From Minisyncoccia bacterium (GTDB taxonomy: Bacteria; Patescibacteriota; Minisyncoccia; Phycocordibacterales; UBA2100), in the NCBI GenBank assembly GCA_965659025.1, contig CBFHTW010000001.1, positions 1 to 56,442 of the forward strand: a stretch of DNA of 56,442 nt, written 5' to 3'. Every line of letters starts with the position of its first letter. Position 1 is the first letter of the stretch. Positions 55 through 34,766 of this stretch are shown one piece after another. The notes under the pieces are model-generated. The model was not told where the DNA came from. It saw nothing but the letters and a program-made list of their open reading frames with translations, and ran no database searches. Position numbers and translations under genes: made by a program.

Positions 55-2667
55 CTACGCAGAACGTTTTGCCTTTTTAAGCGCCCGTTTGAGGTAGTAC
101 CCAGTATGCGAGCCTTCGGCGCGGGAGATATCTTCTGGAGTACCCTTTGCCACGATGCTTCCGCCACCAGAGCCTCCTTCCGGACCCATGTCTATAATCC
201 AATCGGCACATTTGAGCACGTCAAGATTATGCTCAATCACGATGACCGTGTTGCCGTGATCTACAAGCTTCTGAAGTATATGGATGAGTTTATCCACATC
301 GTCGTAGTGAAGTCCCACAGTAGGTTCATCCAAAAGATATACCGTTTTACTCTGGTGCGGACGATACAGTTCACTCGCAATCTTCACGCGTTGGGCCTCG
401 CCGCCAGAGAGCGTCGTCGCGCTTTGTCCGAGTTCAAGGTACCCAAGGCCAACATCATCAAGGGTCTTGAGGCGATCGTAAATGGAGGGGATGTCCTCAA
501 AGAAACGAATACCCTCTTCCACTGTCATGCTAAGAATGTCATGAATATTCTTTTTCTTGTAGGTTACGTCTAGCGTCTCTTTCATAAAACGTTTGCCGTT
601 GCACACGTCGCAGGTTACATACACTGTCGGCAAGAAGTGCATCTCCACAGCCACAAGCCCGTTGCCTTGGCAGGCCTCACAGCGTCCACCCTTTACGTTG
701 AAGCTAAAACGTCCCGGCCCCCAGCCGCGAGCACGCGCCTCATCGCTCATAGCGAAGAGATCACGGATGTGCGTCCATGCGCCGGTGTATGTGGCGGGGT
801 TTGAGCGCGGCGTGCGGCCGATCGGCGATTGATCTATAAGTATTGCTCTGCCAAGTCCTTCAGTGCCAGAAAATTCATCGCAGTTATATGTCTTCGCACT
901 GCGGTACCGAGCGTCAAATCGCGCCTGCAGGTTGCGATGGATGATTTCATACAGAAACGTGGATTTACCGGAGCCAGACACGCCGGATATAACTACCAAT
1001 TTACCCAGTGGGATGTCAGCGTGCTGCTTTTTGATATTAAATTTGGACGCGCCGCGAATCTTGATAGCACCTTTGTTTGCCGTGCGCCGTCTTTCGGGCA
1101 ATTCTATGCGCGCTTCATCGCGCAGATAGCTCAGAGTGCGCGAGCCGCTTGTGTTGCGCTTTGCGGTGAGTAAATCCTCCAGGTAGCCCGAGACAACAAT
1201 GTTCCCTCCGTGCACGCCTGCGCCTGGCCCGATGTCTACAATGTAATCGGACGCAAAGATAGTGTCTTCATCGTGTTCCACCACAAGCACCGTGTTGCCG
1301 AGACTCCGCAGGTGTTTGAGTGTCGCAATAAGTTTGTCGTTGTCGCGCTGGTGCAGGCCGATAGTCGGTTCATCCAGCACATACAACGCCCCCACGAGTC
1401 CGCTTCCTAGTTGCGACGCAAGTCGGATGCGCTGGGCCTCGCCGCCGGAAAGTGTGTTTGCCGTGCGGTTGAGGGTGAGGTATTCAATCCCCACGTCCAA
1501 CATAAAGGTGAGGCGGTTGGTGATTTCTTTGATCACCACCCGGGAGATTTCTTCTTCCTTTTTTGTAAGTTTCAGAGACGCAAAAAACGCCGCCGCCTCC
1601 TCTATGGAAAGTGAGGCCACCTCTACGATATTGAGTCCTTTCTTTTCACCTTTGCCGCCAAGAAACACATGCAGAGCCTCAGGCCGCAGGCGCGCGCCCT
1701 GACACACTTCACATACCTCGTCGGAGAAGAGATACTTCGTGCCGAGCCCTTTACACTCCGGACACGCGCCATAAGGAGAATTGAATGAGAACAGGCGTGG
1801 TTCCACCTCTGGGAAAGAGAACCCATCATGCGGGCACATAAACTTGGCCGATACGATGTGGGCCACGCCTGAAGCATCTGTTATTCTCACGAGCCCGTCG
1901 CTCTCATGAAGCGCTCTTTCAATCGCCTCGCTCGCGCGCTCGCGCGTGGCCTTCGGATCATCAACGAATTCCGAGACAAACAATTCGTCCACCACGATAT
2001 CAATGTCGTGCTTGATATTCTTTTCCAAGATAATTCTCTCTCGGAGCGAGCGTACCGCACCATCTATGACGGCCTTCTCAAATCCTTTGCCAAGCATGTC
2101 GTAGAGCATTTGGTAATACTCACCCTTGCGTCCCACCACTAGCGGCGCGGCAATCCTCACCATCGCCTGCGAGACACCACTCGTGAGCGCGCGTTTTGCT
2201 TGCGTAGTGTGAGATCCACTTTTGCGCGCCTCTTCCACAATACGCAACACTGTGTCTAAAATTTCATCGTTGGAGAGCTTCCTCACCTCACGGCCACAAG
2301 TGAGACAGTGGGGTTTGCCGATGCGTGCGTACAAGACGCGCAGGTAATCGTATATTTCGGTGATGGTGGCGACGGTGGAACGCGGATTGTTGGAGCGGCT
2401 CTTTTGATCTATAGAAATTGCCGGAGAGAGCCCACTGATTTCGTCCACATCGGGCTTCTGCATTTGCCGGAGAAATTGGCGGGCGTATGCGGAAAGCGAT
2501 TCCACATACTTGCGCTGTCCTTCGGCGAAGATAGTATCAAACGCCAACGACGATTTGCCACTGCCGGAGAGTCCGGTGCACACGATCATTTTGCCGCGCG
2601 GCATCTCCACGTGTACATTTTTCAGATTATGGGTCCTCGCCCCCTTTATGATGATTTTGTCTTCCAT
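55..2667 (-). CDS. uvrA: Excinuclease ABC subunit A (UvrA)
   Basis: 870-aa ORF. N-terminus [11 protein letters not shown]...[35 protein letters not shown]. Second ABC module GVSGSGKST, two LSGGEAQR signatures and CxxC zinc modules. Confidence 0.95.
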
Positions 2668-9738: not shown

Positions 9739-11288
9739 TGCGCCGCGGGAAGTTGAATGAAAAATGTGGAGCCCTTACCGGCGCCTGGCGATTCCACCCA
9801 TACGCGTCCGTGCATCCCTTCAATAAGATTCTTGGCGAGATAGAGGCCAACGCCAGTGCCTAAGAGATTCGCCTTTGCCGCATCAGCTCTGGAAAACTTT
9901 TTAAAGAGATTCGGAATCGTTTCCGCGGGGATTCCCACACCCGTATCAGTGATTGCCACGGTGAACGTATCATCAGTGTGCTGTTCTACGGATACGGTGA
10001 CAGACCCTTCTTTCGTGTATTTGAGGGAGTTGTCTATAAAGATACCTATCACCTCTTTTACCTTTTGGGCATCACCTAGTACGCAGTAGTCTTTGCTCAG
10101 ATCAATATGCGAAATGAGCTTGAGCCCGTGTTGTGACGCGTGTGGTTGGAATTCACCGACCACAGTTGCGGCACATGAGCCAACATCAAATGAAGTGAGA
10201 GAATACTGCAACTGTCCAAGCTCCAGCTTGGACTTATTGAGAAATTGCGTAATGAGCGAAAGTACATCGTGCGTGGATACTTGTATCTTCTCCACCGTCC
10301 CCTTCGCCGCGGTATCTAGCGTGCCCGCATCACCCTCCAAAAGTAGGGTCGCAAAATTTTGGATGCGTGTAATTGGATTGCGTATTTCATGCGAAGCAAA
10401 GGTCATAAACTCGGACTTGTCATTGCTGAGTTGCTCAATACGCTCTCTTTGTTCCACCTCGCGGTATTCAGCTTTGATAAGTACCACGCTTGCCACGGCA
10501 ACAGCGATGAAGAATACCGATCTGAAGAATAATTCCAACGTCCCATCCGATAGGCCAACCTGTATCAAAAGTACCACGTTTATGAACGTAACAAGCAATT
10601 CCGTTGAAAGCGCCCTAAGATTAAAGAGACGATGTTTAAGCGCCGCGTATGAAAGAAGGAAAGGAAATACTGCCACTAAGATATTCCCATACGGCAGGAC
10701 CGGAATATCATACCAAAGCAAAAAATTACTGAATCCACCACCAAAACCAAAGAGTGCGCCTATGAGAATGTATACAGCCTGGCCCCTCTTGGACGAGGAG
10801 TGGTTCTTGAGTTCCGAGAATAACAGATGTAACGCAAGTATGAGACATCCGGAATAAATAATAAAAAGATAAAAAGTGTACGCAGGCCCGGCATCGGGCC
10901 AAAATGGAAAGATTAGTTTTGGCCTGATGTCAGCTATTACATACTGTGTACGACTTAACAGTATGACTGCAACAGCTGAAATATGGATAAAGGTCCGAAA
11001 TACGTAAAAACGATGACTTTGACCGAGGATTGTGAGAGTCCACTCAAGAAATAATGTGGGTATAAGCACAGATGCCGCAGCGAGCAACTGTATCCACAAC
11101 AGTGCAGTGGCTTCGTCGGAGGCGGACAACCAACGCCAATACGAGAGCGCCCAAATACCCAGGGCAATCGCCATCAAGAGAAAGAGACGATTTGAAACAT
11201 CTTTCCAATTCTTCAGTATCACTATTAAACCAAAAGCAAGCGCAATGACGCCCACAACAAGTCCGGACACTGCAAAGAGTTCAAGCAT
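9735..11288 (-). CDS. Sensor histidine kinase with a polytopic N-terminal membrane domain
   Basis: HisKA H-box (FASHEIRNPIT) and HATPase_c (GTGVGLYLAKNLIEGMHGRVWVES). Roughly 7 TM helices at the N-terminus. Start at the ATG at 11288 overlaps the upstream stop by 8 nt. No response regulator lies in the window. Confidence 0.85.
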   Translation of the reverse strand: MLELFAVSGLVVGVIALAFGLIVILKNWKDVSNRLFLLMAIALGIWALSYWRWLSASDEATALLWIQLLAAASVLIPTLFLEWTLTILGQSHRFYVFRTFIHISAVAVILLSRTQYVIADIRPKLIFPFWPDAGPAYTFYLFIIYSGCLILALHLLFSELKNHSSSKRGQAVYILIGALFGFGGGFSNFLLWYDIPVLPYGNILVAVFPFLLSYAALKHRLFNLRALSTELLVTFINVVLLIQVGLSDGTLELFFRSVFFIAVAVASVVLIKAEYREVEQRERIEQLSNDKSEFMTFASHEIRNPITRIQNFATLLLEGDAGTLDTAAKGTVEKIQVSTHDVLSLITQFLNKSKLELGQLQYSLTSFDVGSCAATVVGEFQPHASQHGLKLISHIDLSKDYCVLGDAQKVKEVIGIFIDNSLKYTKEGSVTVSVEQHTDDTFTVAITDTGVGIPAETIPNLFKKFSRADAAKANLLGTGVGLYLAKNLIEGMHGRVWVESPGAGKGSTFFIQLPAAH

Positions 11289-12174
11289 GGTCCTTTTGGG
11301 CAACAACAATTGTGTGTATATTCAGTGGCTCTACATAGCCGGTAATGTTGTGTTCCTTAAATGCACTCGCCGCGACCAACCCCACAATCTCCTCCGGAGT
11401 ACGGTAAATCATGTCCCAGCCAACTACATTCTTAACGAATCGTTTTTCTTTGTTGTGATTGATGTTCGCGGTAATAAATACACCGTCATCTTCCAACACA
11501 TTGTATATGAGGTCAAAAAGCCCAATGGCCTTAATGTCAGTAAAATAATCCATCAGACCAACCATTTCAACAACAGTGAACTTCTCATTAGCATGCTTGC
11601 CACGTAAATGCTCTCCCGCAGTAGAACATACCCACTCAAGACCACAGGTTAAGTTGCGTTCGCTTGCCAAGATGCGGCTGTACGCAAGCGCCGCCTCATC
11701 TTTATCAAGGAACGTGAGCTTGACACTCGGATTATCTTTCAGACCGAGAGCTACGACTGATTCTATGATGGCGCGCGATGAGCCGGCGGCAATACTCAAG
11801 ATGTGCACTCGCTTTCCATCACGAATTCGGCGATGGATTGCTTTCTTCACTTCTCTTTCAACAATTCTAAGGCGGTTACGAACTGCCCTTGCATTTAAGG
11901 TACCAAACCACACCCGAGCAAAAATCTTTTGCAACAATCCATGTGATGTCTCTGGATATCCATAGTTATATAGCGCCTCTAGTGCTCTGTATTGTGTGGC
12001 ATAGCGCACAACCGTCTCTGCCGATTTATGCGTCCTTCGAATCATAGAGCGAGACGATGCCGGAAGCGCATTGAGAAAAGGAACCAAAAAAATATTCAAG
12101 GTGCGGCGGCGCACTGACGGATACTCAAAGACAAGCTCTTTATCAGAGTCTTGAAATACAGTGTGCGATGCCAT
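11281..12174 (-). CDS. Putative class I SAM-dependent methyltransferase-like protein
   Basis: 297 aa. ILSIAAGSSRAIIE...FLDKDEAAL...VEMVGLMDYF...DDGVFITANI resembles a Rossmann-fold methyltransferase. The region is visibly AT-richer than its flanks. Confidence 0.45.
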   Translation of the reverse strand: MASHTVFQDSDKELVFEYPSVRRRTLNIFLVPFLNALPASSRSMIRRTHKSAETVVRYATQYRALEALYNYGYPETSHGLLQKIFARVWFGTLNARAVRNRLRIVEREVKKAIHRRIRDGKRVHILSIAAGSSRAIIESVVALGLKDNPSVKLTFLDKDEAALAYSRILASERNLTCGLEWVCSTAGEHLRGKHANEKFTVVEMVGLMDYFTDIKAIGLFDLIYNVLEDDGVFITANINHNKEKRFVKNVVGWDMIYRTPEEIVGLVAASAFKEHNITGYVEPLNIHTIVVAQKDHA

Positions 12175-12182
12175 GGTACTTA

Positions 12183-12869
12183 TTATTTTAACCCACCTAT
12201 AGCCGCCATCGCTAATTGCACGGCATTTTTGTATTTTGATGCATCATCTATATATTGTTCGGTGAATAGACTATCTACATATAGGGGTTGGCCGAATGTT
12301 AATGTCATGTGCCTTTTGAACCCAAGAAATGTAGCTGGACGGATACCAAATACTCCACCAATATACACCGGAACTATTGGTACACGGGTTGCGTCACATA
12401 AAAACGCGACTCCTCCCCGCCCCTCTTGTAGTGAACCATCTTTGGTGATGCGCCCTTCCGGAAAGATACAAATACTTCCTCCGTCCTTCAATATCTCAAC
12501 ATGTTGATTAAGAGCTAATGCATAATTTTTGTGTCCCGCTGTATATGTGTACGCCCCCCATGCGGGAAAAAACCATGCTGTGGTGTAGAGAAATCTGCGC
12601 CACCCAAATGAAACGTCATCAAAAAATTTATTCGGAGCGGCAACATAAAAAAGGGGTGCAAATCGCCCGAGTGGATTAAGAGCGGCGGTGAGTATGATTG
12701 AATCAAGTTCACTTGTGTGATTGACGGCAAAAATTGCTTGACGTATGTCGCGTAAATTTTCAATACCACGCACTTCAAATCTACAAAATATATTAAATAA
12801 CAAGCGTGTAGGTCCCCATGCAAGCGTTTGCAGAATGCGCGGTGGCCACGAGTAGAATTTTTTATACAT
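12183..12869 (-). CDS. plsC: 1-acyl-sn-glycerol-3-phosphate acyltransferase family (PlsC-like)
   Basis: HX4D motif (NHTSELD) and FPEGRITKDG motif. Confidence 0.8.
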   Translation of the reverse strand: MYKKFYSWPPRILQTLAWGPTRLLFNIFCRFEVRGIENLRDIRQAIFAVNHTSELDSIILTAALNPLGRFAPLFYVAAPNKFFDDVSFGWRRFLYTTAWFFPAWGAYTYTAGHKNYALALNQHVEILKDGGSICIFPEGRITKDGSLQEGRGGVAFLCDATRVPIVPVYIGGVFGIRPATFLGFKRHMTLTFGQPLYVDSLFTEQYIDDASKYKNAVQLAMAAIGGLK

Positions 12870-12871
12870 AT

Positions 12872-15070
12872 TTATTTCGCCACGCGGACGGCTTCGTCAA
12901 ACTTCACCGACAAAATCTTAGAGACCCCGTCGGTATCCATAGTAACACCATACAGCTCCCCCGCCGCCGTCATCGTCGCGCGATTGTGCGTGATAACGAT
13001 AAGCTGGGATTTGGAGGAAAGTTCACGAATCATGTCCGCGTACCGACGACTATTGGCCTCATCAAGCGCGGCGTCCGTCTCATCCAATATGAGAAACGGC
13101 GGAGGATTCACCTGAGACATCGCAAAAATAAGCGCGATTGAGGTAAGCGCTCGCTCACCGCCAGAGAGCACCTCCAAGCCGCGCACTTTTTTGCGCGGCA
13201 AAGATACGAAAATGGAAACCCCTGCGTACAGCTCGTCTTCTTCATCTTCCGGCATTTCATCATCTTCATCACCATCGCGCACCGCGCGCGCCCGCGGCTT
13301 TTCTACAGAAAGTTTTGCACTGCCGCCGCCGAAGAGCTTGGTGAAAAAAAGGTGAAGCGCTTCATTGATCCGAACCAGGCCTTCGGTAAATTTGGTGTCC
13401 ATCGTCTCTTCAAGTTCCGCGATGATGTGGCGAAGTTTTTCAATGGAAGCCTCCAAATCACTGACCTCCCGCGCAAGGAATTCGTCGCGCTCTGTGGTAT
13501 GACGAAATTCGCGTACCACTTCGTCGCCGTTTCCGACCCCCGATTCCTCAATCTTTATCTTGAGGCGTTCAATCGCCCGGCGCCGTTTTTCTTGCTCACT
13601 CCTGCTTTCGCTGAGCGCACCTTCAGGAATACCCGCCTTTTGCCAGCCATGCACACCTGCGCCGATAAGGGTGATGCCCTCGCGCACCTCCTCTTCAAAT
13701 GATTGACGTGCCGCGGATATTTCACTTTGGCGGCGCTCCAGAGAAGCGAGTCTCGTCGCCACCTCTTTTCTTTGCGACTCATGCACCATGATGGTGCGCT
13801 GTGCCTCGTGTTGTGCCTCGCGCAAATCCTCGCCGGCCTTCCGCACAGTCGCAAGCTCCTGTTCAATGCGCTCTTCTTCGGCAGTTGCCTGTGCAAGCTT
13901 TTCAGTGAGAGCGGCGACCTGTTGCGCGTCGCCTTTTGGTGCGGCGTGATCGGCTGATGGAAGGACTGCGCGAAACGCGACAATCTCGCGGCGGGCGTCG
14001 TCATACCGACCGGCCGCGATATGCGCTTCAATTGTCTCAAGCAACGAACGAACGCGGGCCGCAGAAACCTGCGTCTCCACGCCTTCCTGCGTCGTCTTGA
14101 ATTCCATCATCGCCTCGGCTCGTCCGAGCTCGCGCATTGTCTCTTCGCGAATGCGCCGCGCCGATGCTCGCCTATCTTCAAGAGCGCGGAGTCTATTCGC
14201 GTGTTCTGCGCTCTCATCTGGCGTACCTGGATTGTGTTTTTGTACGTGTGCGCGAACCTGCGCAATGCGCTCGTCTGCTTCTTTCAGCTCCGCACGCACC
14301 GCCGCCGTCTCTGCGGCAACAAGCGTGCTCTCTTGTTCTATGTACGCGTGTTCTCGCGAGAGATACTCAGAGAGACGCACCGAGAGATCTTCTTTGACTT
14401 CTCTCGCCTTCTCTATCTTTTCCACCTGCGCGCGCAAAAAATGCAGATGCGGCGCAAGTTCGCGCCGCAGTGATTTTGCCTTATCCAAATTTGTCTCTGT
14501 TTCTACCAACTGGCGTTCGCTCTCCATTTTCTTGTGCTGGTAGAGCTTTAGGCCGAGCGCATCTTCTATCATCTCCCGACGCTGACGCGGCGAAGCGCCG
14601 AGGATTCTGTCTGCCTCGCCTTGCGAGATGATCTGATACCCAGAACCGCCGATGTTGGCCCCCGCAAGCAAACGAATGACATCCTTAAGGCGTACTTGCG
14701 AACCGTTGAGTAGGTATTCGTTTTGCCCGTCGCGATGCACGACGCGCTCAATCACTACTTCCTTAAACTCTAAATCTAACAATGGCTTGCCCGATCGGCC
14801 GGGTGTGTTGTCAAAAGTCACTTTGACGGCCGCTCTATTCTGTCGCGCCATGGCGGGCGAACCACCCCAAATGAGATCTTCACCGCGCTTACTGCGTAAT
14901 GATTTCATGGACTGCTCACCGAGTACAAAACGAAACGCCTCCGCCACGTTGGATTTTCCAGAGCCGTTTGGCCCGACAACCGCAGAAATAGGCGAGGTAA
15001 AGGCAAGTGTCGCCTTTTTGCCAAACGACTTAAAACCAGTGAGCTCTATGGATTTCAACGCCAAAAACAT
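12872..15070 (-). CDS. smc: SMC-family chromosome segregation ATPase, short form without a recognisable hinge
   Basis: SMC N-terminal head (LTGFKSFGKK...VVGPNGSGKSNVAEAFRFVLGEQS) and C-terminal head (LSGGERALTSIALIFA...LILDETDAALD). The middle is E/A/R-rich coiled coil. It lies downstream of rnc, as in the Bacillus rnc-smc arrangement. Confidence 0.85.
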   Translation of the reverse strand: MFLALKSIELTGFKSFGKKATLAFTSPISAVVGPNGSGKSNVAEAFRFVLGEQSMKSLRSKRGEDLIWGGSPAMARQNRAAVKVTFDNTPGRSGKPLLDLEFKEVVIERVVHRDGQNEYLLNGSQVRLKDVIRLLAGANIGGSGYQIISQGEADRILGASPRQRREMIEDALGLKLYQHKKMESERQLVETETNLDKAKSLRRELAPHLHFLRAQVEKIEKAREVKEDLSVRLSEYLSREHAYIEQESTLVAAETAAVRAELKEADERIAQVRAHVQKHNPGTPDESAEHANRLRALEDRRASARRIREETMRELGRAEAMMEFKTTQEGVETQVSAARVRSLLETIEAHIAAGRYDDARREIVAFRAVLPSADHAAPKGDAQQVAALTEKLAQATAEEERIEQELATVRKAGEDLREAQHEAQRTIMVHESQRKEVATRLASLERRQSEISAARQSFEEEVREGITLIGAGVHGWQKAGIPEGALSESRSEQEKRRRAIERLKIKIEESGVGNGDEVVREFRHTTERDEFLAREVSDLEASIEKLRHIIAELEETMDTKFTEGLVRINEALHLFFTKLFGGGSAKLSVEKPRARAVRDGDEDDEMPEDEEDELYAGVSIFVSLPRKKVRGLEVLSGGERALTSIALIFAMSQVNPPPFLILDETDAALDEANSRRYADMIRELSSKSQLIVITHNRATMTAAGELYGVTMDTDGVSKILSVKFDEAVRVAK

Positions 15071-16099: not shown

Positions 16100-17023
16100 T
16101 TACACGGTCGCCTTTTTGGCGAGAATGTTTATCGCCTTGGTAACAACCGGCAGGATGTCATCATAAAAATTCAGATCGCCCACACTGGCAAGCGGAAACC
16201 ACTGCGCGTCATCCAGCCCTCCTTCGCGCTTAAGCTGGAGGTCGTCAAACGCCGCCCGCGCTAAAAAGTATGTAGCATGCCGGCGCTTCTTCCCCTGCGG
16301 GTTGCTCGCGTCTTTGTCGTTGGCGATGTATTCATTTTCTCCGAGCGTGTCCTCCACAGAGACAGACAGGCCGATTTCTTCCTGCACCTTCCGCTTCACG
16401 CCGTCCTCGTGTTTCTCGTCCTGTTGAAGGCGACCTTTGGAAAGCGTCCAATGGCCGAAGATGTCATGCACGAGTGCGAGGTACACTCCGTCGTCTGAGC
16501 GCGCATACACCACAGCTCCGACAAGTTTTTCCACCGGCATCTTGCTCGGGTCAACGGTCACGCGTTTCTTGCGCTCCCCGCCGTCTTGTTTGCCTGGCTC
16601 ACCAAGCTCCACATACACGGCCCCAAGCACGCCGTTGACGAAACGAGATGAGGACGAACCGCCAAAGGCCTTGGCGAGCTCTATTGCCTCATTGATAGCC
16701 ACCTTGGCAGGCACTTGCACACGGTCTGCATACAAAAGCTCCGCCAATCCAATGCGGAGTATGTTGCGGTCTATCGCCGCGATTTTCTCCAGGGGCCATT
16801 CCGGTGCCGCCTTTGCGATCACGGCATCTATCTCTTTTTGTTTAGCGACGACCGTGCGTACCAGCGACTGCATAAAAGACGTGTCGTTGTCGCGCGCACC
16901 GAATTCGCTTGCATAGAGTGCGATGCGCTCCAGCATCGTTTCTTCCGACATCGGCTGATCCGATGCATCTCTCTCAAAAAGCACTTGCAGGACGACCGAA
17001 CGCGCAATGTGTCTGTTTGCCAT
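16100..17023 (-). CDS. nusB: NusB-like antitermination domain fused to a NUDIX hydrolase domain
   Basis: N-terminal roughly 145 aa are NusB-like (ARSVVLQVLFERD...AIDRNILRIGLAELLY...INEAIELAKAFGG..SRFVNGVLG). The C-terminal half carries a Nudix box, GRLQQDEKHEDGVKRKVQEEIGL. The ATG at 17023 is preferred because the ORF-track start at 17035 is TTG. Confidence 0.85.
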   Translation of the reverse strand: MANRHIARSVVLQVLFERDASDQPMSEETMLERIALYASEFGARDNDTSFMQSLVRTVVAKQKEIDAVIAKAAPEWPLEKIAAIDRNILRIGLAELLYADRVQVPAKVAINEAIELAKAFGGSSSSRFVNGVLGAVYVELGEPGKQDGGERKKRVTVDPSKMPVEKLVGAVVYARSDDGVYLALVHDIFGHWTLSKGRLQQDEKHEDGVKRKVQEEIGLSVSVEDTLGENEYIANDKDASNPQGKKRRHATYFLARAAFDDLQLKREGGLDDAQWFPLASVGDLNFYDDILPVVTKAINILAKKATV

Positions 17024-17077
17024 ACAAAAGATCAAAAAGAACGGCGGATATCGCCGTATCGTAGCACAATGATGCGC

Positions 17078-23653: not shown

Positions 23654-25141
23654 TTATCCGCGAGAGATAACAATCTTTGTGCCTTCCATCTGCATGGTGT
23701 CGGCAGTCTGTGAGACCGTCGGCACAAATGCTGGCGCAAAGACTGTACGCTGTGTGATAACAGGCTCCTCACGCTGTTCTTTCTTGACAACGGCCGCCAC
23801 TTCCGAAGAAGCCGCAACTGGTGTTACGAAGAGCGGTGATTGTGCCTTGCGCATGGTGGTGCGGCGCGGGAGTGTCCCGGCGAAACCGCCAAGAGCACCG
23901 GCCACAAGACCAAGAGCCGAAGAGCGAGCGTACACGATAAGGTACGCGGCAGAGGCGGCGAAGGCCGCAAGCAATACCCAGTAGAGTGTGTTGCCCACGA
24001 TGCCGAGATCAAAGCCTGTGTACGGCACCGAAGAGAGCGCCACGTACTGAGAGGCAGAAACCTGAAGCGACACACTGCATGTAGCAGAACCGTTCGGGCC
24101 ATACACGGTGAGCGCGTACACGCGGCTTGCCTCTGGCTCTACCGAGAGCGTGCCGGAAGTCTGTACCGCGCCGATGCCGTCGGAAAGCGTTGCGCTTGTT
24201 GCGCCGTAGCTCGTCCAAGAGAGGGTTGCGTTGTCACCATCGCGGATAGCCGTCGGATTGGCAGAGATACTGCACGAAGGCGTCTGGCTTTGGTAATACG
24301 TCGGCTGATACACCGGGTATGTGTTGTTGTAGTTGTACACATACGGGTACGAGGTCTGGTAGTTGGTGTATGTCGTCGGGTACACCGGGTACGTCTGCGG
24401 GTAGGTGTACTGCACGGTGTACTGCGGCGTCGCGTACGCAAGGTGCGTTACATTGGTGTTGCCGCTATTTACCACATTGGTGTTACAGCTGTTGCCTGTG
24501 CATGTGTTGATGACCGAAGAACCACCACCCGTAGGATACGAAGGGTAGCTTGGGTACGAAGGGTAGCTTGGCGTCGTCGGGCGCGCGATCTGCACAGGCT
24601 GTGCGATCTGCACCGGGCGGGCAATGCTCGCCGTGGAGACGCTGTAGCCGTATGACGGTGTGGACACCGAGATCGGCGTGGAGTAGGAGTAGGTCGTGTC
24701 GTAGCCATACGTGTCGGCGTAGCCATCGTAGAAGGACGAGCATGTGTAGCACGAGCCATCTGCGGCGTAGCCGTCAAAGCCATCGTAGGCGTAACCGTCA
24801 AAGCCAGTGCCAGCATATCCGTCGTAGCCATTGTAGGCGTAGCCGTCAAAGCCCGTGCCAGCATATCCGTCGTAGCCATCGTAGGCGTAGCCGTCAAAGC
24901 CCGTGCCCGCATAACCGTCAAAACCATTGTAGGCGTAGCCATCGTAGCCAGAGTAGCCGTCGTAGCCGGAGTAGCCATCGAAGCCGGAGTATCCGTCAAA
25001 ACCGGAATACCCATCAAAGCCCGAGTAGCCGTCAAAGCCACTGTAGCCGTCAAACTCCTGCGCATACGCAATAGGAGCAACTGCAAGTACAGCTACAACC
25101 ACAAGTGCGAGCACATTTCCTTTCGTAATGAGATTTTTCAT
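23654..25141 (-). CDS. Secreted Tyr/Gly/Asp-rich tandem-repeat surface protein with an Ig-like domain, a VPYTG motif and C-terminal TM segments
   Basis: Start at the ATG at 25141 (MKNLITKG...). Signal peptide LAVAPIAYA-QE. 14 [FY]DGY repeat units, then PVQIA x2 and PSY x4 repeats. A beta-rich domain (CSISANPTAIRDGDNATLSWTS...), then LSSVPYTGFD followed by the hydrophobic stretch LYWVLLAAFAASAAYLIVYA. Confidence 0.8.
   Translation of the reverse strand: MKNLITKGNVLALVVVAVLAVAPIAYAQEFDGYSGFDGYSGFDGYSGFDGYSGFDGYSGYDGYSGYDGYAYNGFDGYAGTGFDGYAYDGYDGYAGTGFDGYAYNGYDGYAGTGFDGYAYDGFDGYAADGSCYTCSSFYDGYADTYGYDTTYSYSTPISVSTPSYGYSVSTASIARPVQIAQPVQIARPTTPSYPSYPSYPSYPTGGGSSVINTCTGNSCNTNVVNSGNTNVTHLAYATPQYTVQYTYPQTYPVYPTTYTNYQTSYPYVYNYNNTYPVYQPTYYQSQTPSCSISANPTAIRDGDNATLSWTSYGATSATLSDGIGAVQTSGTLSVEPEASRVYALTVYGPNGSATCSVSLQVSASQYVALSSVPYTGFDLGIVGNTLYWVLLAAFAASAAYLIVYARSSALGLVAGALGGFAGTLPRRTTMRKAQSPLFVTPVAASSEVAAVVKKEQREEPVITQRTVFAPAFVPTVSQTADTMQMEGTKIVISRG
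24755..25054 (-). repeat. In-frame tandem coding repeats (18-nt units, then 24-nt units)
   Basis: Encodes FDGYSG x5, YDGYSG, then eight 8-aa units ([FY]DGYA[YG][NDT]G). These repeats produce the spurious alternative-frame ORFs in the track. Confidence 0.85.
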
Positions 25142-25265
25142 ACGATGTTTGATAAAAATAGTAAAAACAAACACGACCTGATAACGTTGGTAGTATACCA
25201 ATGAAGAAGCCGCGTGTCAAGTGGTGGTAAAACCACTCAACACGCGGCGTATTTTTTCCGAATCG

Positions 25266-25634
25266 CTACTTTTCGGTGCCGACCCAGCAGCCGAGGCGCT
25301 TCGCGATCGGGTCCATCTTCCAGATACCGGGCTTGCCGGTAGTCTGGCCGGTGCACGCGGCACCTTCAACGGCGCCGGCACCGAAGGCAACGACATCTGC
25401 CACTGCCTTTTGGGCGGGTGCAGAGGTCGGAGCCGGGGCCGGAGCTGAGGTGGACGCAGGCGCCGTGACGGGCGGCGGTGTCATCACCGACTCCACCTTT
25501 GTCTTGGTGGCATCGGCGAAGTCCTTGATCGCCGTCGGATTCGCCTTGTAGGCGTAGTAGCCCACATAGACGAGAACGGCGGCGAGGACGACGGCGATGA
25601 TGCCACCAAAAATGATCTTGAATGCTTGGCCCAT
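25266..25634 (-). CDS. Small membrane-anchored protein, paralog 1 of the two-Cys C-terminal module family
   Basis: AGGAGG SD 6 nt upstream. N-terminal TM (IIFGGIIAVVLAAVLVYVGYYAYK), a Pro/Ala/Thr linker, and the C-terminus GAVEGAACTGQTTGKPGIWKMDPIAKRLGCWVG. Confidence 0.75.
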   Translation of the reverse strand: MGQAFKIIFGGIIAVVLAAVLVYVGYYAYKANPTAIKDFADATKTKVESVMTPPPVTAPASTSAPAPAPTSAPAQKAVADVVAFGAGAVEGAACTGQTTGKPGIWKMDPIAKRLGCWVGTEK

Positions 25635-25664
25635 GATTTCCTCCTGGGTTATGGACTGCCTGTG

Positions 25665-25692
25665 AGTATAACAGATAGAATATAAAAGTCAA
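25665..25692 (-). promoter_or_regulatory. Promoter TTGACT-16-TATACT for paralog 1
   Basis: On the minus strand TTGACT (25687-25692) and TATACT (25665-25670), directly after the upstream terminator hairpin. Confidence 0.6.
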
Positions 25693-25718
25693 GGGGCGCG
25701 GATTTTCATCCGCGCCCC
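25693..25718 (-). terminator. Hairpin GGGGCGCGGAT-GAAA-ATCCGCGCCCC
   Basis: 13 nt downstream of the stop of the 4-TM gene. Followed by TTGACTTTTAT on the minus strand. Confidence 0.65.
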
Positions 25719-25730
25719 AGTAAAAAAGAG

Positions 25731-26189
25731 CTACATCCTCGTTTCGCCACGCTCCTTGCCCGCGAAGGCAATGCGTTGCGAGAAGAGTAAGCCCCAGAGA
25801 AGGTCGCTGAGACTGAACGCAGTACACTGCATCAGAATCAGTTTTTCGTTGGCCCCGAGATCCCGAAACCCCGGGAGCAGTAGCAGGAAGAGTCCCGAGA
25901 ATGACGCGACGAGGGCGAGAAGGTTGTCTATGAACCATTGCCCCATGTCGGTTGACTCGCGAGTGCTCGTCCCCCAGAGCTGGACGTTGAAGTAGATGAG
26001 AAGCGGCAGCCACATGAATTTGGCCAACCACCCCATCCCACCATCGCCGATCACGTATTTGAGCACCGGGAAACCAATTCCCAGCATAAATACGATAAGA
26101 ATGCCGGTGGTCACCCAGCTGACGAGCGAGGCGACATCTTCCACATTCCATTCGGAAGTCTCGCCGAAGTAATCTTTACGCTTTGACAT
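25731..26189 (-). CDS. Hypothetical 4-TM integral membrane protein
   Basis: 152 aa with a GGAGGAGGA SD and four hydrophobic segments. I recognise no family. Confidence 0.7.
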   Translation of the reverse strand: MSKRKDYFGETSEWNVEDVASLVSWVTTGILIVFMLGIGFPVLKYVIGDGGMGWLAKFMWLPLLIYFNVQLWGTSTRESTDMGQWFIDNLLALVASFSGLFLLLLPGFRDLGANEKLILMQCTAFSLSDLLWGLLFSQRIAFAGKERGETRM

Positions 26190-26215
26190 TTCTCATCCTC
26201 CTCCTGAAAGGTTGT

Positions 26216-26243
26216 GGGCGGTGCGCACTAGTGCGCACCGCCC
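26216..26243 (-). terminator. Perfect palindromic hairpin GGGCGGTGCGCAC-TA-GTGCGCACCGCCC
   Basis: 8 nt downstream of the paralog 2 stop. No clear T-tract follows. Confidence 0.5.
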
Positions 26244-26250
26244 GTTGGAA

Positions 26251-26778
26251 TCAGTTGCCGACGAAACAGCCAAGACGGCCGCTCGGGTCAGTCTTCCAGA
26301 CGCCGGGTTTGCCGGTCATCTGGCCGGTGCACGCGGCACCTTCGACGGCGCCGGAGCCATAGACCGAAACCATCGCGACCGATGAGCCACACGTCCCGCA
26401 AGGGGCGCGAGTGACAGGCGGTGCGATAACCGGAGCCGGGCACGGAGCCGGAGCAACACGAACCTGCGCCGGCGGCAGATAGGTAACCTGCGGCACCTGC
26501 CGCACGATCACCCGTTGCGGTACCTCCACCACACGAGGCGGCGGGGTCTGCACGACGACCGGCGCGGACGCCGCGATCGGCGCGCATCCGGGCGCATTGC
26601 ACACGGCCCGAACAGTGCGGTAAATCGGCTTGCGCACCGTGACGGTGCGGTAGCCGATGACGCGCTTCTGTGTCATGCATCCGCCCTGATGGGCGTATGT
26701 CTGACAGCCAGCCTCGGCGGCCGGCGCGAAAGCAAAAATACCAACCGCGGCAAGCGCGGCAACGATCAGATTGCGCAT
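26251..26778 (-). CDS. Secreted Cys/Pro-rich protein, paralog 2 of the two-Cys C-terminal module family
   Basis: ATG at 26778 preceded by AAGGAGG. Signal peptide MRNLIVAALAAVGIFAFAPAAEA-G. A Pro/Val/Gln-rich linker, and the C-terminus GAVEGAACTGQMTGKPGVWKTDPSGRLGCFVGN. Confidence 0.75.
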   Translation of the reverse strand: MRNLIVAALAAVGIFAFAPAAEAGCQTYAHQGGCMTQKRVIGYRTVTVRKPIYRTVRAVCNAPGCAPIAASAPVVVQTPPPRVVEVPQRVIVRQVPQVTYLPPAQVRVAPAPCPAPVIAPPVTRAPCGTCGSSVAMVSVYGSGAVEGAACTGQMTGKPGVWKTDPSGRLGCFVGN

Positions 26779-26888
26779 GGCAACCTCCTTTTTGCGCCGC
26801 CGCGAGGCGGCTTTGTTAAAGATCAGTGGCTTGTGAAAGCCATCTAGGTACAGATTTGCACCCAGAATTACATTCACAAAAAGTTGGA

Positions 26889-26919
26889 GGAAGCGGCCGG
26901 CCATTGCGCGGCCGCTTCC
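26889..26919 (-). terminator. Hairpin GGAAGCGGCCG-(9 nt)-CGGCCGCTTCC followed by a T-tract
   Basis: Just downstream of the paralog 3 stop. On the minus strand it is followed by TCCAACTTTTTG. Confidence 0.65.
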
Positions 26920-26926
26920 AAAAAGA

Positions 26927-27184
26927 TCATGGCCCCACCCAACAACCGAGTTTGCCATTGGGGGCAAGCTTCCAGACGCCGGGCTTTCCGGTGGTCGCAC
27001 CGACGCACGATGCGCCAGCCACTAGGGGACCTTCCTGTGTCTGGAACTTCACCGCAGGCACAATAATGCCCGGCGATGCCGTGGATTGGATTCCCTTGTA
27101 GGTGTAGTAGCCGAGGTTCGCCCCGACCACAACGACAACAAGGATAATAATAATCCACCCCAACGATTCCGCAATTTTTGCCAT
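26927..27184 (-). CDS. Small membrane-anchored protein, paralog 3 of the two-Cys C-terminal module family
   Basis: ATG at 27184 with a GGAGGG SD. TM helix (LGWIIIILVVVVVGANLGYYTYK). C-terminus GPLVAGASCVGATTGKPGVWKLAPNGKLGCWVGP. Confidence 0.75.
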   Translation of the reverse strand: MAKIAESLGWIIIILVVVVVGANLGYYTYKGIQSTASPGIIVPAVKFQTQEGPLVAGASCVGATTGKPGVWKLAPNGKLGCWVGP

Positions 27185-27253
27185 CTGTATACCCTCCGCG
27201 CTCGTTACCCCGAGCAATGGGCCGCACGAAGCGGTATCTTTTTATCCTCCGCC

Positions 27254-27281
27254 ATTATATCAGAAAGAATACCCTTGTCAA
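27254..27281 (-). promoter_or_regulatory. Consensus sigma-70 promoter TTGACA-16-(TGA)TATAAT upstream of paralog 3
   Basis: On the minus strand CCCTTGACAAGGGTATTCTTTCTGATATAATGG. Perfect -35 and -10 hexamers plus a TGn extended -10. Confidence 0.7.
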
Positions 27282-27308
27282 GGGCATGTAGTCATCTCGG
27301 CCAAAGCG

Positions 27309-27572: not shown

Positions 27573-28763
27573 TTATGGAAGCAAACTTTTAATGTCGTCT
27601 TTCGTGGCGGGAGTAGAACCAAACAATAGCATCAACAGTATACTGAAGACACCGCGCCCCTTGTATTTCCGGCGTTGCGCCACCTCCCGTTTGGCAAATT
27701 CTTCTTTGAGAGAATCGCGGAGCGCTGGCTGTTTGGATATGTTTTTTATATTGCGGCGCTTGCACTCTTCTTTTTCATACGCCTCGTACCGCGCAACGAC
27801 TGCCGCTGGGCTCGGGTCGGACTCTTTCTTTATGTGTTCGTACTCATCTATGGTCTTTACGGTGTCCGGATTCTTACGCTCTACACTCTCTACCAGCGAA
27901 GACCCACTGCGCATGTACGACTGAATGCCATGAATATCATCGGGGGTGATCGTCGCATGTAAAAATCTCGCGATGGTGACACGGTGCACATCACACTTCT
28001 TCATGAGCCCTTCTTGTTCCTCTAGATTCCTGAAGATCTTCCGTCCACGGTGCGATGAAAGAGCGTGGAATGTAACAAAATCAACCGATTTTCTAAACCA
28101 GCCATATTCCTTTGAGGCCGCTTCGCGAAGATTTTTAAGCGTCTGTGATCGTCCGGCGTCAAGACCAAGTCGTGTCGCCTCGGAGAGTTCTTCATGCGAC
28201 ACACTATATTTGGAAAGTATGGCGGTAAGGCGATCGTCAAGTTTTTCTGCCTCTTTACCTGTCTCTATCTCGTGTATTGATTTGAGTGCGTGAGTGATCA
28301 TGGTGAGTGCGGTTGGGTCTGAGTGTCCAAAATCCTGCATCTTTGCGCGCATGAGCCGCGCCATTTCCCCCTCTCCAGTCTGGCCAACAAGTGTCGCCAA
28401 ACGAGTGTCTGTTTTTGCAATACGCTTCATCTCGTCGGCAGTGAGTGCTTGAGAAACTATCTCTATTTCCCTAGAGCGCAGATTGTATAATTTACGCATA
28501 GACTCAAGCTCATTTGACTGCTCTGGAGTGAGACGTCCTTCTCTGACCGCATCGGCAACATCAACGGCAAAATCAGGCCTATGCGTATACAGGAATTCAT
28601 TTAGAAACCTGTTCTGCTGCTTGGGGTCCTGCAATATGTCTTTGAGAGTGCGATTATTTTCGGGAAAAGATACCTCCTCATCCTTATGAAATGGGTGTTT
28701 AATCGTTTCTTCGTGCGAAGCGTGTAGCCGCTTTATTCGGCTCAATCTATCAAGTCTTTCCAT
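27573..28763 (-). CDS. Hypothetical helical protein with a C-terminal TM tail anchor
   Basis: Start at the ATG at 28763 (MERLDRLSRIK...). Charged and helical throughout, with a C-terminal GVFSILLMLLFGS hydrophobic segment. I recognise no family. The region is AT-richer. Confidence 0.65.
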   Translation of the reverse strand: MERLDRLSRIKRLHASHEETIKHPFHKDEEVSFPENNRTLKDILQDPKQQNRFLNEFLYTHRPDFAVDVADAVREGRLTPEQSNELESMRKLYNLRSREIEIVSQALTADEMKRIAKTDTRLATLVGQTGEGEMARLMRAKMQDFGHSDPTALTMITHALKSIHEIETGKEAEKLDDRLTAILSKYSVSHEELSEATRLGLDAGRSQTLKNLREAASKEYGWFRKSVDFVTFHALSSHRGRKIFRNLEEQEGLMKKCDVHRVTIARFLHATITPDDIHGIQSYMRSGSSLVESVERKNPDTVKTIDEYEHIKKESDPSPAAVVARYEAYEKEECKRRNIKNISKQPALRDSLKEEFAKREVAQRRKYKGRGVFSILLMLLFGSTPATKDDIKSLLP

Positions 28764-28782
28764 GACAGTATTGTGCCATGGC

Positions 28783-28803
28783 AAAAAAGCCGCGCAAGGC
28801 GGC
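28783..28803 (-). terminator. Short GC hairpin GCCGC-CTTGC-GCGGC followed by T6
   Basis: Downstream of the sortase stop on the minus strand. Confidence 0.5.
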
Positions 28804-28823
28804 ATTTGGATAACAAAAGACTC

Positions 28824-32408: not shown

Positions 32409-34766
32409 TTACCTAATGCGGTAACCCTTCCCCTCTAGCGCCGCAGTGATGCCTTCCATAAGCACCTGGGCATCGGTGTCGGAGAGTGTTTTGTCGTGCG
32501 ACTGAAACACAAGATGAAATGCGTACGATATGTTGTCGTCTTTTTGGAATGTATCAAACAAAAACACGCGAGAGAGGAGCGGGCCGGCGACAGATCGGAT
32601 GAGCGCCTCTACCTCTGAAGCCGACACAGATGCCGGAACCCACAATGCAATATCGCGCAGAAGGTAGGGAAACGCTGAGATGGGAGTGTACGCCGCGTGC
32701 ACATCCACGCGCGGTGCGGGTGGATACGGCGTCTCTGGAGCGGGCAGGGTGTCCGCAATCGCACCAAGGTCGCACTCAATGATGTCCGCTGTTTCCGTAA
32801 ACGACACGGAAACCCCAAGGGCGGATTCCACCGTACTGCGCGCCAGGGCAAGCGCACTGGCATGCACCTCGCTCTCATGTTTGCCGGGCGGAGCGTATAC
32901 ACCGATCGCGAGCGCAAGCACTTCTTCCTCTTCTTCCGAAAACACATTGCCTATCTCAAACACCCGCACCGTATCACCGCCAAGAAGCGGAAGTTGCTTT
33001 TCGTTGCGCGCGAGCACGTCGGCGAGCGCGCCGCGCAGATCCTTACGCAAAGTGCTTTTGTCAGATGCGAGCGGATTCGCAAGATGCACCACTCCGTCCT
33101 CACGAAGAGCGTACGTAGACACTTCGCAAAAGCCGAGTGCCGAAAGCGCGGCGCGCACGCGCTCGGAGTAGTAAAAACGATTGTCCGGAACCGACACTGC
33201 ATCTTCCGTAAGCGCGGCGATGCCGATTTTTTCATATCCATACACGCGCCCTATCTCTTCTATGAGATCCGCCGGTATGCGCAAATCAAGACGCTCAAAG
33301 GGCACGGTAACGACCGCGCGCAGAGAGGTGTCGTCAAGCACGCGACGATACCCGATCGTGTTGCGGAACGACGGACTCTCATCAAGCGGCTCTATAACCA
33401 CGCGGCCTGGATCGCGCGTGGCATGCAAGACAAGGTTGTTGCCAATGTACAAACCCACATGGTCAATACCCTCGGGTACGGACGTGCCGGGAATGAATTG
33501 TTTTGTCTCGTAATGAATGTTGCCGCGGTTGCTGTTGGAAAAGACGAGATCACCCAGTGTCAGCGCTTCACGAGTAATCGGCGTGCCCCAGACATACTGA
33601 TCAATGGAAATGCTCGGCATGGCGATACCCACCTGCACAAAAAGATAATTCGTGAGCGAAGAACAGCTGAATGTGTGCGGCGCATCAAAACGAATGGCGC
33701 TGTCCCCCTTGTACTGCGCGCCCACGAGCGTCTGCGCCACCTTGAGCACTTTCTCCTGCGGCTGTACCACCTCATACGGAAGTCCCAGTTGCACAAGAAT
33801 GCGCGTGATGTCTTCCAGGGTGAGTTGTGTGCCCAAAAGACGATTAACCTCGCGCGCGGAGACTCCAAGCTTAAACGGCGCTCCGGCCTTGCGGCGCACT
33901 ACGTCAACATCACGAAGCGTTCCTCCTGCGATGTCTGAAATGAGCGCTGTAACGGCGCGCAGGCCGTAGAGCGGCAAGTCGTCGGCGATTTCGTTTTCAA
34001 AGCGTTTGGAGGCGTCGGTGCGAAGCTGGAGTCTTTGTGCGGCGCGACGCGTTACCACCGGATGAAACTTCGCCGCTTCTATCACAATCGTGGACGTCTC
34101 GCCGGTAAGCTCGGCGTGCGCGCCGCCTTTGACTCCCGCGATGGCGATCGGGGTGTCAGACATGGTGTCGATGATAACCATTTCTGCCGGAGAAAGTTCC
34201 AGGCTCTCTCCTCCGAGAATTCCAATGTTCTCTCCCTCGCGAGCATCGCGCACGCCGATAGAGACAACTCCGTCGTGGGAGAGCTTGTTTGCGTCAAACA
34301 CGTGGAGCGGCGTCCCGAGCTCAAACATCACGTAATTTGTCGCGTCAACGATGTTGTTGATAGAGCGTTGCCCTACCGCAGAGAGTCGCTCCACGAGCCA
34401 CGCGGGTGATGGTCCTACTTTCACGTCTTCCATAATTGCCGCGCAGTAGATAGGACAGCGGCTCGTGTCGTGGACGGAGACGCGCACGGAACCCGATGAC
34501 TCGGGAAACACCGGTATATCCCCAGAGAGCGGGTCGCGAGAAAGCGGCACGTCAAGCAGAGAAGAAAGTTCCCTCGCCACTCCGCGGTGAGAGAGACAAT
34601 CGTGCGCGCGATTGGGAAGCACTTTCACATCAAACACATGGTCTGCGCCTGCTTTAGAAACACCTTCTACTTCAAAAGCTCCAAGTGTGAGACGGCTCGC
34701 AAGCTCCTCTGCCGAAGGGAGTGGTTCCTTGAAAAACGTTTTGAGCCATTCGTAGCTGATTAACAT
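32409..34766 (-). CDS. pheT: Phenylalanine--tRNA ligase beta subunit with an inserted NlpC/P60-like domain
   Basis: B3_4 editing domain (CPIYCAAIM...INNIVDATNYVMFELGTPLHVFD), B5 domain, core and FDX-ACB C-terminus. A roughly 145-aa insert at aa 335-480 is described in the findings. No N-terminal OB (tRNA_bind) domain. Confidence 0.93.
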   Translation of the reverse strand: MLISYEWLKTFFKEPLPSAEELASRLTLGAFEVEGVSKAGADHVFDVKVLPNRAHDCLSHRGVARELSSLLDVPLSRDPLSGDIPVFPESSGSVRVSVHDTSRCPIYCAAIMEDVKVGPSPAWLVERLSAVGQRSINNIVDATNYVMFELGTPLHVFDANKLSHDGVVSIGVRDAREGENIGILGGESLELSPAEMVIIDTMSDTPIAIAGVKGGAHAELTGETSTIVIEAAKFHPVVTRRAAQRLQLRTDASKRFENEIADDLPLYGLRAVTALISDIAGGTLRDVDVVRRKAGAPFKLGVSAREVNRLLGTQLTLEDITRILVQLGLPYEVVQPQEKVLKVAQTLVGAQYKGDSAIRFDAPHTFSCSSLTNYLFVQVGIAMPSISIDQYVWGTPITREALTLGDLVFSNSNRGNIHYETKQFIPGTSVPEGIDHVGLYIGNNLVLHATRDPGRVVIEPLDESPSFRNTIGYRRVLDDTSLRAVVTVPFERLDLRIPADLIEEIGRVYGYEKIGIAALTEDAVSVPDNRFYYSERVRAALSALGFCEVSTYALREDGVVHLANPLASDKSTLRKDLRGALADVLARNEKQLPLLGGDTVRVFEIGNVFSEEEEEVLALAIGVYAPPGKHESEVHASALALARSTVESALGVSVSFTETADIIECDLGAIADTLPAPETPYPPAPRVDVHAAYTPISAFPYLLRDIALWVPASVSASEVEALIRSVAGPLLSRVFLFDTFQKDDNISYAFHLVFQSHDKTLSDTDAQVLMEGITAALEGKGYRIR

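Follow-up and report, generated by a model that had tools for sequence, protein, structure and literature searches.

The foldon of T4 fibritin is a C-terminal beta-hairpin of ~27-30 residues that stands at the end of a stalk, exposes aromatic and hydrophobic residues and has no cysteines. Tips kept identical by gene conversion on different tethers usually mark a common partner or mutual assembly. Here we describe a locus that can be set beside both, in a contig of 56,442 nucleotides from Minisyncoccia bacterium (Patescibacteriota; GenBank assembly GCA_965659025.1, contig CBFHTW010000001.1; the whole stretch is called the window below). Four short minus-strand genes lie within 25209-27281 in the order P3, P2, a four-helix membrane protein gene, P1, and the proteins P1, P2 and P3 all end in a small two-cysteine module. 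The modules are a real family: a conserved, previously undescribed small domain of a narrow uncultured clade, whose copies are homogenized within genomes by gene conversion. Its marks of regulation and of conversion are unusually clear. Our favored explanation is that the cluster encodes a clade-restricted envelope set, with a shared disulfide-stapled docking module and a four-helix partner, an overall picture to which we would give slightly less than an even chance.

The module family and its distribution

When the three C-termini are aligned, 18 of about 44 columns are invariant, and a consensus of ~30 residues emerges, G-x2-C-x-G-x3-G-x2-G-[VI]-W-K-x7-8-G-C, in which both cysteines are invariant and lie 20-21 residues apart at the C-terminus. 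A hidden Markov model (HMM) of 15 modules scores the three open reading frames (ORFs) of the cluster at E = 6e-23, 7e-22 and 9e-20, and the next best value among all six-frame ORFs of the 56 kb is E = 0.27. Hence the window holds exactly three copies of the module, far beyond chance, and the original prediction for this DNA, that three paralogs placed as in Table 1 share a C-terminal two-Cys module, is borne out. A further claim, that P1 and P3 have a common membrane anchor ending in GYYAYK or GYYTYK, holds in the window and in the related locus L004 and fails in L005 and L007, where the N-terminus of P3 differs. Taken mechanically, the longest ORF of P2 would begin at GTG 27000 and overlap P3, but the start that orthologues retain is ATG 26778, which is preceded by a Shine-Dalgarno sequence (SD) and followed by a signal peptide. 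In two orthologues that signal peptide has a lipobox-like LAGC or IAGC.

The module had been described as unrecognizable as any named family, and searches agree. Best Pfam matches to the module proteins and the four-helix protein reach 9-17 bits against cut-offs of 23-30, and NCBIfam gives at most 15 bits for the cluster proteins, with no family above its cut-off. PHROGs yields a partial match at E ~1e-3 to transmembrane (TM) or Pro-rich sequence, and PADLOC yields PD-T4-6 at 19 bits on the TM segment and linker of P1, outside the module. With the module as query, a profile search of the PDB has a best E of 1.4, and Foldseek searches with its model have best E values of 2.2 (PDB) and 0.42 (BFVD), none of them significant. 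A literature search on the motifs found no paper that contains them.

An exhaustive hmmsearch of 1.84 billion protein representatives, used after a word-index homology search had missed even known members and been discounted, gave 12 matches at E <= 1e-3, of which 10 are genuine. Nine of the ten are of P1, P2 or P3 type and are spread over this organism, one close strain of it and three lineages that are related. The tenth (P0016) is a 151-aa fragment from soil in which the module is internal, with at least 28 residues beyond it, and this makes it an autonomous domain and not a terminal tag. The two remaining matches, P0017 and P0018, were rejected as repeat or low-complexity artefacts. P0018 (572 aa) is an unrelated fn3-containing protein with about six repeats of ~47 aa that contain TGQACIWKIDPTG; no Pfam family covers these repeats, and their likeness to the central hairpin of the module is superficial. 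Scans of 185,579 species genomes and of JGI metagenome contigs returned only chance or out-of-frame matches to the module. The single match among the species genomes, in a Xanthobacteraceae metagenome-assembled genome, proved to be an out-of-frame translation within an ABC-ATPase gene and was set aside as spurious. Viral contigs contain no relatives of the module or of the four-helix protein. The family is thus narrowly distributed, in roughly six uncultured lineages from fresh water and soil.

A C-terminal position on otherwise different proteins, combined with co-evolution within the genome, is typical of sorting domains, and a sortase gene that is syntenic in relatives lies 1.6 kb away. One might accordingly ask whether the module is a recognition or sorting tag read by an envelope machine, either that sortase or some other system. 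The proteins end soon after the module, in ...LGCWVGTEK, ...LGCFVGN and ...LGCWVGP for P1, P2 and P3, and the residues beyond it form neither an LPXTG-like motif nor a hydrophobic helix or basic tail. The module is confined to three proteins per genome, no other architecture appears in the 1.84e9 representatives save the soil fragment, where the module is internal, and the Tyr-rich protein encoded downstream, which does have a sortase-suited signal (VPYTG, a TM segment and R), lacks it. We consider a sorting tag highly improbable.

An AlphaFold2 model of the module, built from 12 sequences, has a mean predicted local distance difference test (pLDDT) score of 72, rising to ~80 in the core, and contains three strands at residues 17-19, 26-32 and 37-41; the module is accordingly predicted to be a three-stranded beta mini-sheet of ~28 aa. 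Its cysteines belong to the first and third strands. One hydrophobic helix is present in each of P1 and P3, at the N-terminus, and every cysteine in these two proteins is C-terminal of it. Because P2 carries its module behind a signal peptide, and because all cysteines of P1 and P3 follow a single anchor, the best reading is that the module is extracytoplasmic and disulfide-stabilized, with the two invariant cysteines most likely forming a disulfide staple. To this extent the suggestion in the original prediction of abundant disulfide-stabilized surface or adhesion modules is favored as regards location; their abundance is a forecast from the expression signals described below.

Selection and gene conversion

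Homologues exist beyond this genome, in related lineages, and they are under purifying selection. At deep divergence, the four-helix gene has a proportion of nonsynonymous differences (pN) of 0.10-0.22 against saturated synonymous differences (pS) of 0.66-0.89. For P1-P3, the ratio of nonsynonymous to synonymous rates (dN/dS) across lineages is 0.18-0.8, with in-frame indels in the spacers and a conserved module, and between close strains pN/pS is 0.26 for P1 and likewise for P3. Conserved frames and this selection signal exclude the reading that the ORFs are non-coding or artefactual.

Module copies within one genome resemble each other more than orthologous modules do. The P2 and P3 modules of L005 are 94% identical in nucleotides and use the same codon at 25 of 27 positions, and those of L004 are 86% identical, with an identical run of 45 nt, whereas most pairs of orthologous modules are 61%-77% identical (the exception is L007 versus L008, at 86%-90%). 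The modules are therefore homogenized within genomes by gene conversion. A recent event of this kind is visible in the window itself. The seven positions at which P1 departs from its counterpart in strain L012 are clustered in 25351-25380, the remaining ~340 nt being identical, and over that segment the window has the sequence of P2; it is a recent conversion tract. It accounts for the DNA-level identity of the P1 and P2 modules, to which the original prediction had correctly drawn attention.

Recombination between strains appears to be active here as well. Between 25381 and 26944, a segment that comprises the P2 leader, P2, the four-helix gene and most of P1, there is not one difference from L012 in 1,564 bp, while neighboring genes differ by 3%-7% and the adjoining P3 has 22 differences in about 310 bp. 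P2 is identical in L013 and L014 also. A block without differences that is flanked by a variable P3 indicates strain-to-strain exchange, and it points to a recent recombination or sweep over 25381-26944.

Expression signals of the cluster

All four cluster genes have an AGGAGG or GGAGG 6-9 nt before the ATG, with SD duplex free energies of -10.0 to -12.3 kcal/mol. Among the 36 genes checked in the window, none of the other 32 reaches -10 (the best has -7.2), a contrast of 4/4 with 0/32 that is robust even though some of the 32 compared starts are mechanical ORF starts. The strong SDs against SD-less neighbors that had been claimed for this cluster are thus confirmed, and the signals are kept in orthologues. 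Several housekeeping genes have a TATAAT- or TATACT-like box 6-8 nt before the ATG, e.g., those starting at 6992 (TyrRS), 15070 (SMC), 32324 (GyrB), 35509 (PheS) and 41056 (RF), which suggests that leaderless mRNAs are widespread in the window.

A promoter scan recovered the two near-consensus promoters that had been predicted, before P3 and before P1 (Table 1), the former with its -35 box in the loop of a short hairpin. The same scan, with the conserved P2 leader included, recognized no sigma-70 promoter for P2 or for the four-helix gene. Strong hairpins stand downstream of all four genes (-25 to -32 kcal/mol; z = -5.5 to -7.7). The hairpin of P2, however, has no U-tract and stands only 61 nt ahead of the four-helix gene, and it is probably an attenuator or stabilizer within one transcript. 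These features, together with the lack of a recognized promoter, indicate three units: P3, P2 with the four-helix gene, and P1. The four genes had originally been taken for separate transcription units, each with its own terminator. This stands for P3 and P1; P2 and the four-helix gene are probably co-transcribed, and the strong hairpin expected after every gene is present, without the U-tract in the case of P2.

The terminator-like hairpins at 27269-27287, 25693-25718 and 25209-25248 (all minus strand) overlap or abut the -35 box of the next promoter, and TTGACA lies either within the loop or at the stem's 3' foot, an arrangement conserved in all orthologous loci. More generally, the expression elements are retained in orthologous loci despite saturated synonymous sites. 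P2 is preceded by a structured leader of 25 pairs, of which seven show double compensatory changes among five loci (z = -5.3). It matches nothing in Rfam at the gathering threshold or at E <= 1, and could be a regulatory 5' untranslated region or a processing element. Taken together, the strong promoters and the only strong SDs in the window predict high abundance of the cluster proteins.

The GC content at third codon positions (GC3) of P1, P2 and the four-helix gene is the highest in the window (0.72-0.76) and, like their use of SDs, sets these genes apart. Such features might be relics of a donor, if the cluster were a foreign cassette taken up long ago, such as a remnant of a prophage or a set of genes from a host, that persists with no structural role in the envelope; the block without strain differences covers exactly this segment, suggesting recent recombination. 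No relatives are found, however, in viral contigs, PHROGs or the 185,579 species genomes, and no integrase, repeats or tRNA flank the cluster. Purifying selection has acted across lineages with saturated synonymous sites, and the promoters are of the same type as those of neighboring native genes. A foreign cassette is therefore very improbable in our judgment.

Table 1. Positions and properties of the cluster genes, their modules and the associated expression signals (window coordinates)
Feature	Position	Strand	Properties
P3	26927..27184	-	85 aa; N-terminal signal-anchor helix, ~30-aa spacer, module; GGAGG SD
P2	26251..26778	-	175 aa from ATG; signal peptide AEA|GC, Cys-rich N-domain, conserved Pro-rich segment, CxxC, module at end; AGGAGG SD
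Four-helix membrane protein	25731..26189	-	152 aa; between P2 and P1; GGAGGAGG SD
P1	25266..25634	-	122 aa; N-terminal signal-anchor helix, ~60-aa Pro/Ala-rich spacer, module; AGGAGG SD
P3 module	26930..27016	-	GASCVGATTGKPGVWKLAPNGKLGCWVGP; from alignment and module HMM
P2 module	26254..26340	-	GAACTGQMTGKPGVWKTDPSGRLGCFVGN; from alignment and module HMM
P1 module	25278..25364	-	GAACTGQTTGKPGIWKMDPIAKRLGCWVG; from alignment and module HMM
P3 promoter	27254..27281	-	TTGACA-16-(TG)TATAAT, 12/12 match; kept in L004, L005, L007
P1 promoter	25665..25692	-	TTGACT-16-(TG)TATACT; kept in L004, L005, L007, L008
P2 structured leader	26796..26881	-	Long interrupted stem, then invariant GCCGCC-TCGC-GGCGGC hairpin abutting SD
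Hairpin 3' of P3	26889..26919	-	-26.8 kcal/mol; U-run 6 nt past stem; conserved, with compensatory changes
Hairpin between P2 and four-helix gene	26216..26243	-	-27.3 kcal/mol; no U-tract; kept in all orthologous loci
Terminator 3' of four-helix gene	25693..25718	-	-25.4 kcal/mol; U-rich tail merges into P1 -35 box
Terminator 3' of P1	25209..25248	-	-31.7 kcal/mol; overlaps -35 box of promoter of downstream Tyr-rich gene

The four-helix protein, the neighborhood and known systems

The protein encoded between P2 and P1 was first called a 4-TM protein. Only two of its four predicted helices are strongly hydrophobic, and the four-helix call rests on an AlphaFold2 model, which is a four-helix bundle; Foldseek finds for it only generic helical bundles (best E = 0.68). 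Its invariant motifs, TSxRxS in a loop and SQRIAFAGKER in the tail, are predicted to be cytoplasmic, and conserved polar residues (N, Q, D, N, Q, C, D) occur within the membrane helices. These invariant cytoplasmic and intramembrane positions are more in keeping with a platform or partner in the membrane than with a module receptor.

Seven homologues were found. Identity is 64%-79% in the closer ones (L004, L005, L007 and L008), and in these four loci and in L012, a strain 96%-97% identical to the window, the gene order is the same: sortase, a protein of ~400 aa, an acidic protein of ~85 aa, P3, P2, the four-helix protein, P1 and the Tyr-rich protein. The expected synteny of the four-helix gene with module genes thus holds in every related locus recovered, and the position is fixed in the core genome of the relatives, between gyrB and dnaE. 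Two distant homologues (L006 and L009, 40% identity) have directly downstream a signal-anchored exported protein that lacks the module, and hence the pairing of a four-helix protein with a bitopic exported protein is older than the module. These downstream proteins show no detectable kinship to P1 or to each other. On the soil contig of L006, two genes of the PF18895 T4SS_pilin-like family stand beside the distant homologue (1128-1728, minus strand), the one hint of a CPR/Patescibacteria affiliation in the sequences analyzed.

A small membrane protein of several helices that adjoins small, Gly-rich, basic proteins with a putative disulfide loop also recalls the second hypothesis of the original prediction, a secreted toxin or bacteriocin-like family with the four-helix protein serving immunity or export. 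On this reading, the C-terminal two-Cys module would be released as the active peptide. The cluster's own strong expression signals would suit such a role, as would the variability of P3, the gene that differs most between close strains (22 positions in ~310 bp, with none in the neighboring 1.5 kb). The remaining evidence speaks otherwise. No processing site, double-glycine or otherwise, is conserved: P1 begins MGQAFKIIFGG... and P3 begins MAKIAESLGW... in the window, and the GG of P1 (residues 10-11) is GV, GA, GF or GS in orthologues. Among the scanned proteins of the window or of L004, there is no ABC/C39 exporter, peptidase or modification enzyme (the scanned neighbors are housekeeping and surface proteins and a few that match no family, and the only ABC-type match is UvrA), and no bacteriocin or immunity family of Pfam or NCBIfam is matched. 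P1 and P3 are predicted to be signal-anchored and uncleaved, the locus holds a fixed core position in all relatives and not a variable island, the copies are homogenized, not diversified, and the invariant residues of the four-helix protein are predicted to be cytoplasmic. We accordingly regard the toxin hypothesis as improbable.

In the envelope set that we favor, P1, P2 and P3 would place one small C-terminal module beyond the cytoplasmic membrane on three different supports: a short signal-anchored stalk in P3, a longer signal-anchored Pro/Ala-rich (or helical) stalk in P1, and a Sec-exported, Cys-rich and Pro-rich polypeptide in P2. The part of this explanation that concerns an exported envelope module is, we believe, very probable. 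In a sheet of 28 residues the conserved Ile/Val, Trp, Leu and Trp/Phe cannot be buried, and the module therefore probably docks, either to a common ligand or to its sister modules, as a homo- or hetero-oligomeric tip. The need to dock would select for likeness, and this would explain why modules are homogenized while the stalks diverge freely. We put forward shared docking or oligomerization tentatively, as somewhat less likely than not to be correct. Wherever a locus spans the positions of all three genes, none of the tethers is missing, and this speaks for non-redundant roles. For the four-helix protein, whose gene is probably co-transcribed with that of P2, we propose a role as the platform or partner, in the membrane, of the anchored proteins.

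Several observations weigh against this explanation. Gene conversion is possible without any selective need for alike copies. Confidence in the module structure is moderate and its alignment shallow, and in a simple 1-2-3 meander the strands that carry the cysteines, 1 and 3, would not be neighbors. The syntenic genomes are collinear from gyrB to dnaE, so that linkage says little about function. The four-helix protein is not module-specific, given that the proteins encoded after its distant homologues have no module, and the shortness and variability of its extracellular loops speak against its touching the module directly. The distinctive SD use and GC3 also count on this side, since they could instead stem from an old foreign origin of the cluster.

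A more specific version of the envelope set would have the modules of P1-P3 form a heteromeric tip that, with the four-helix protein as platform, builds an envelope or attachment structure that is abundant and peculiar to the clade, in a bacterium with a small genome and possibly an episymbiotic life. The module would then be a new kind of minimal oligomerization or adhesion domain whose copies gene conversion keeps compatible, and its SD-led translation would be a privilege in a genome that is otherwise largely leaderless; we think this version unlikely. If the favored explanation is right, it defines a very small extracytoplasmic domain without detectable relatives, and provides a clean natural case of three differently tethered proteins whose tips are kept identical by gene conversion. 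The SDs on exactly these four genes, absent from 32 of the 36, would also offer a test case for how a genome allocates high translation.

The window is a segment of bacterial chromosome, with genes for UvrA/B, TyrRS, SMC, RNase III, DnaE, GyrB, PheST, S2, EF-Ts, TopA, RelA and ParB. Directly upstream of the cluster are genes for the sortase, a CARDB protein, a 410-aa tail-anchored protein and an 86-aa acidic protein. Surface functions are represented in this neighborhood by the sortase, the CARDB protein and the Tyr-rich protein with its sortase-like signal. The last of these (23654-25141, minus strand), directly downstream of the cluster, has many GFDGYS/GYDGYA repeats, whose number varies by strain (a 36-bp gap at 24945-24980), and an Ig-like domain flanked by cysteines; a tail of ~90 aa follows its VPYTG, TM and R signal. 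Its gene has its own promoter, TTGACA-17-TATACT, and a conserved U-rich leader without an SD. The 410-aa protein (27573-28805, minus strand), which matches no family, is only 53% identical to its L012 counterpart over residues ~1-330, while its last 80 aa are identical and the flanks are 96%-97% identical; this looks like allelic replacement or a hypervariable domain. Elsewhere, residues 363-475 of PheT (32409-34766, minus strand), between its B3/4 and B5 domains, are an inserted NlpC/P60 peptidase-like domain, and the gene at 16100-17035 (minus strand) joins NusB to a NUDIX hydrolase domain. A stretch of low GC (10001-13000; 45%-46% versus ~54%, with GC3 of 0.34-0.49) encodes a 7TM histidine kinase, a methyltransferase and an acyltransferase, and may have been acquired.

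As a domain the module is new, but its kind, that of small exported Cys-stapled envelope proteins, is an ordinary one. Sorting-domain families such as the C-terminal domain of the type IX secretion system (T9SS CTD) are found on many diverse cargo proteins, unlike this module with its three architectures and one soil fragment. Class II bacteriocins and their immunity proteins resemble the cluster in combining small, Gly-rich, cationic, disulfide-bearing peptides with a small helical membrane protein; the cluster differs in having no leader, no dedicated transporter, anchored precursors, a core-genome location and no family match. DsbB and VKOR are thiol oxidases that form four-helix membrane bundles, with two redox-active Cys pairs in extracytoplasmic loops or at helix ends; they came into question because the four-helix protein, here and in the distant homologues, is encoded beside exported Cys-bearing proteins. 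We rejected this identity for the four-helix protein, which has one invariant cysteine (C122, helix 4) and no CxxC or pairs of loop cysteines, and for which there is neither a Pfam match nor significant Foldseek similarity.

The central TGKPGVWKxDPxG of the module resembles the P0018 repeats and other WW-like or propeller-blade hairpins of the form tG-x-x-x-[VI]-W-K-x-D. The matches in question are non-significant or summed over repeats, WW domains themselves appear only among noise-level Foldseek matches to the module, and such hairpins have neither the flanking cysteines nor the single-copy C-terminal context. Type IV pilins are alike in layout, with an N-terminal hydrophobic helix and, at the end of the exported domain, ~20 residues looped between two cysteines (the D-region, disulfide-bonded in pilins), and they are small, abundant envelope proteins that occur in paralogous sets. 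Unlike pilins, however, the module proteins have no class III signal G|FxxxE in any orthologue (the P1 N-terminus is M-[GA]-K-[AV]-F-K-I), P2 has an ordinary signal peptide, no pilin family of Pfam is matched, and no pilus assembly genes occur among the window proteins scanned. The likeness to the foldon would be one of function only: hhalign gives a probability of 0.6% over 8 columns, no structure in BFVD or the PDB matches significantly, and the foldon does without the cysteines. As a small C-terminal beta unit at the end of stalks, it nevertheless offers a model for how the three modules could associate.

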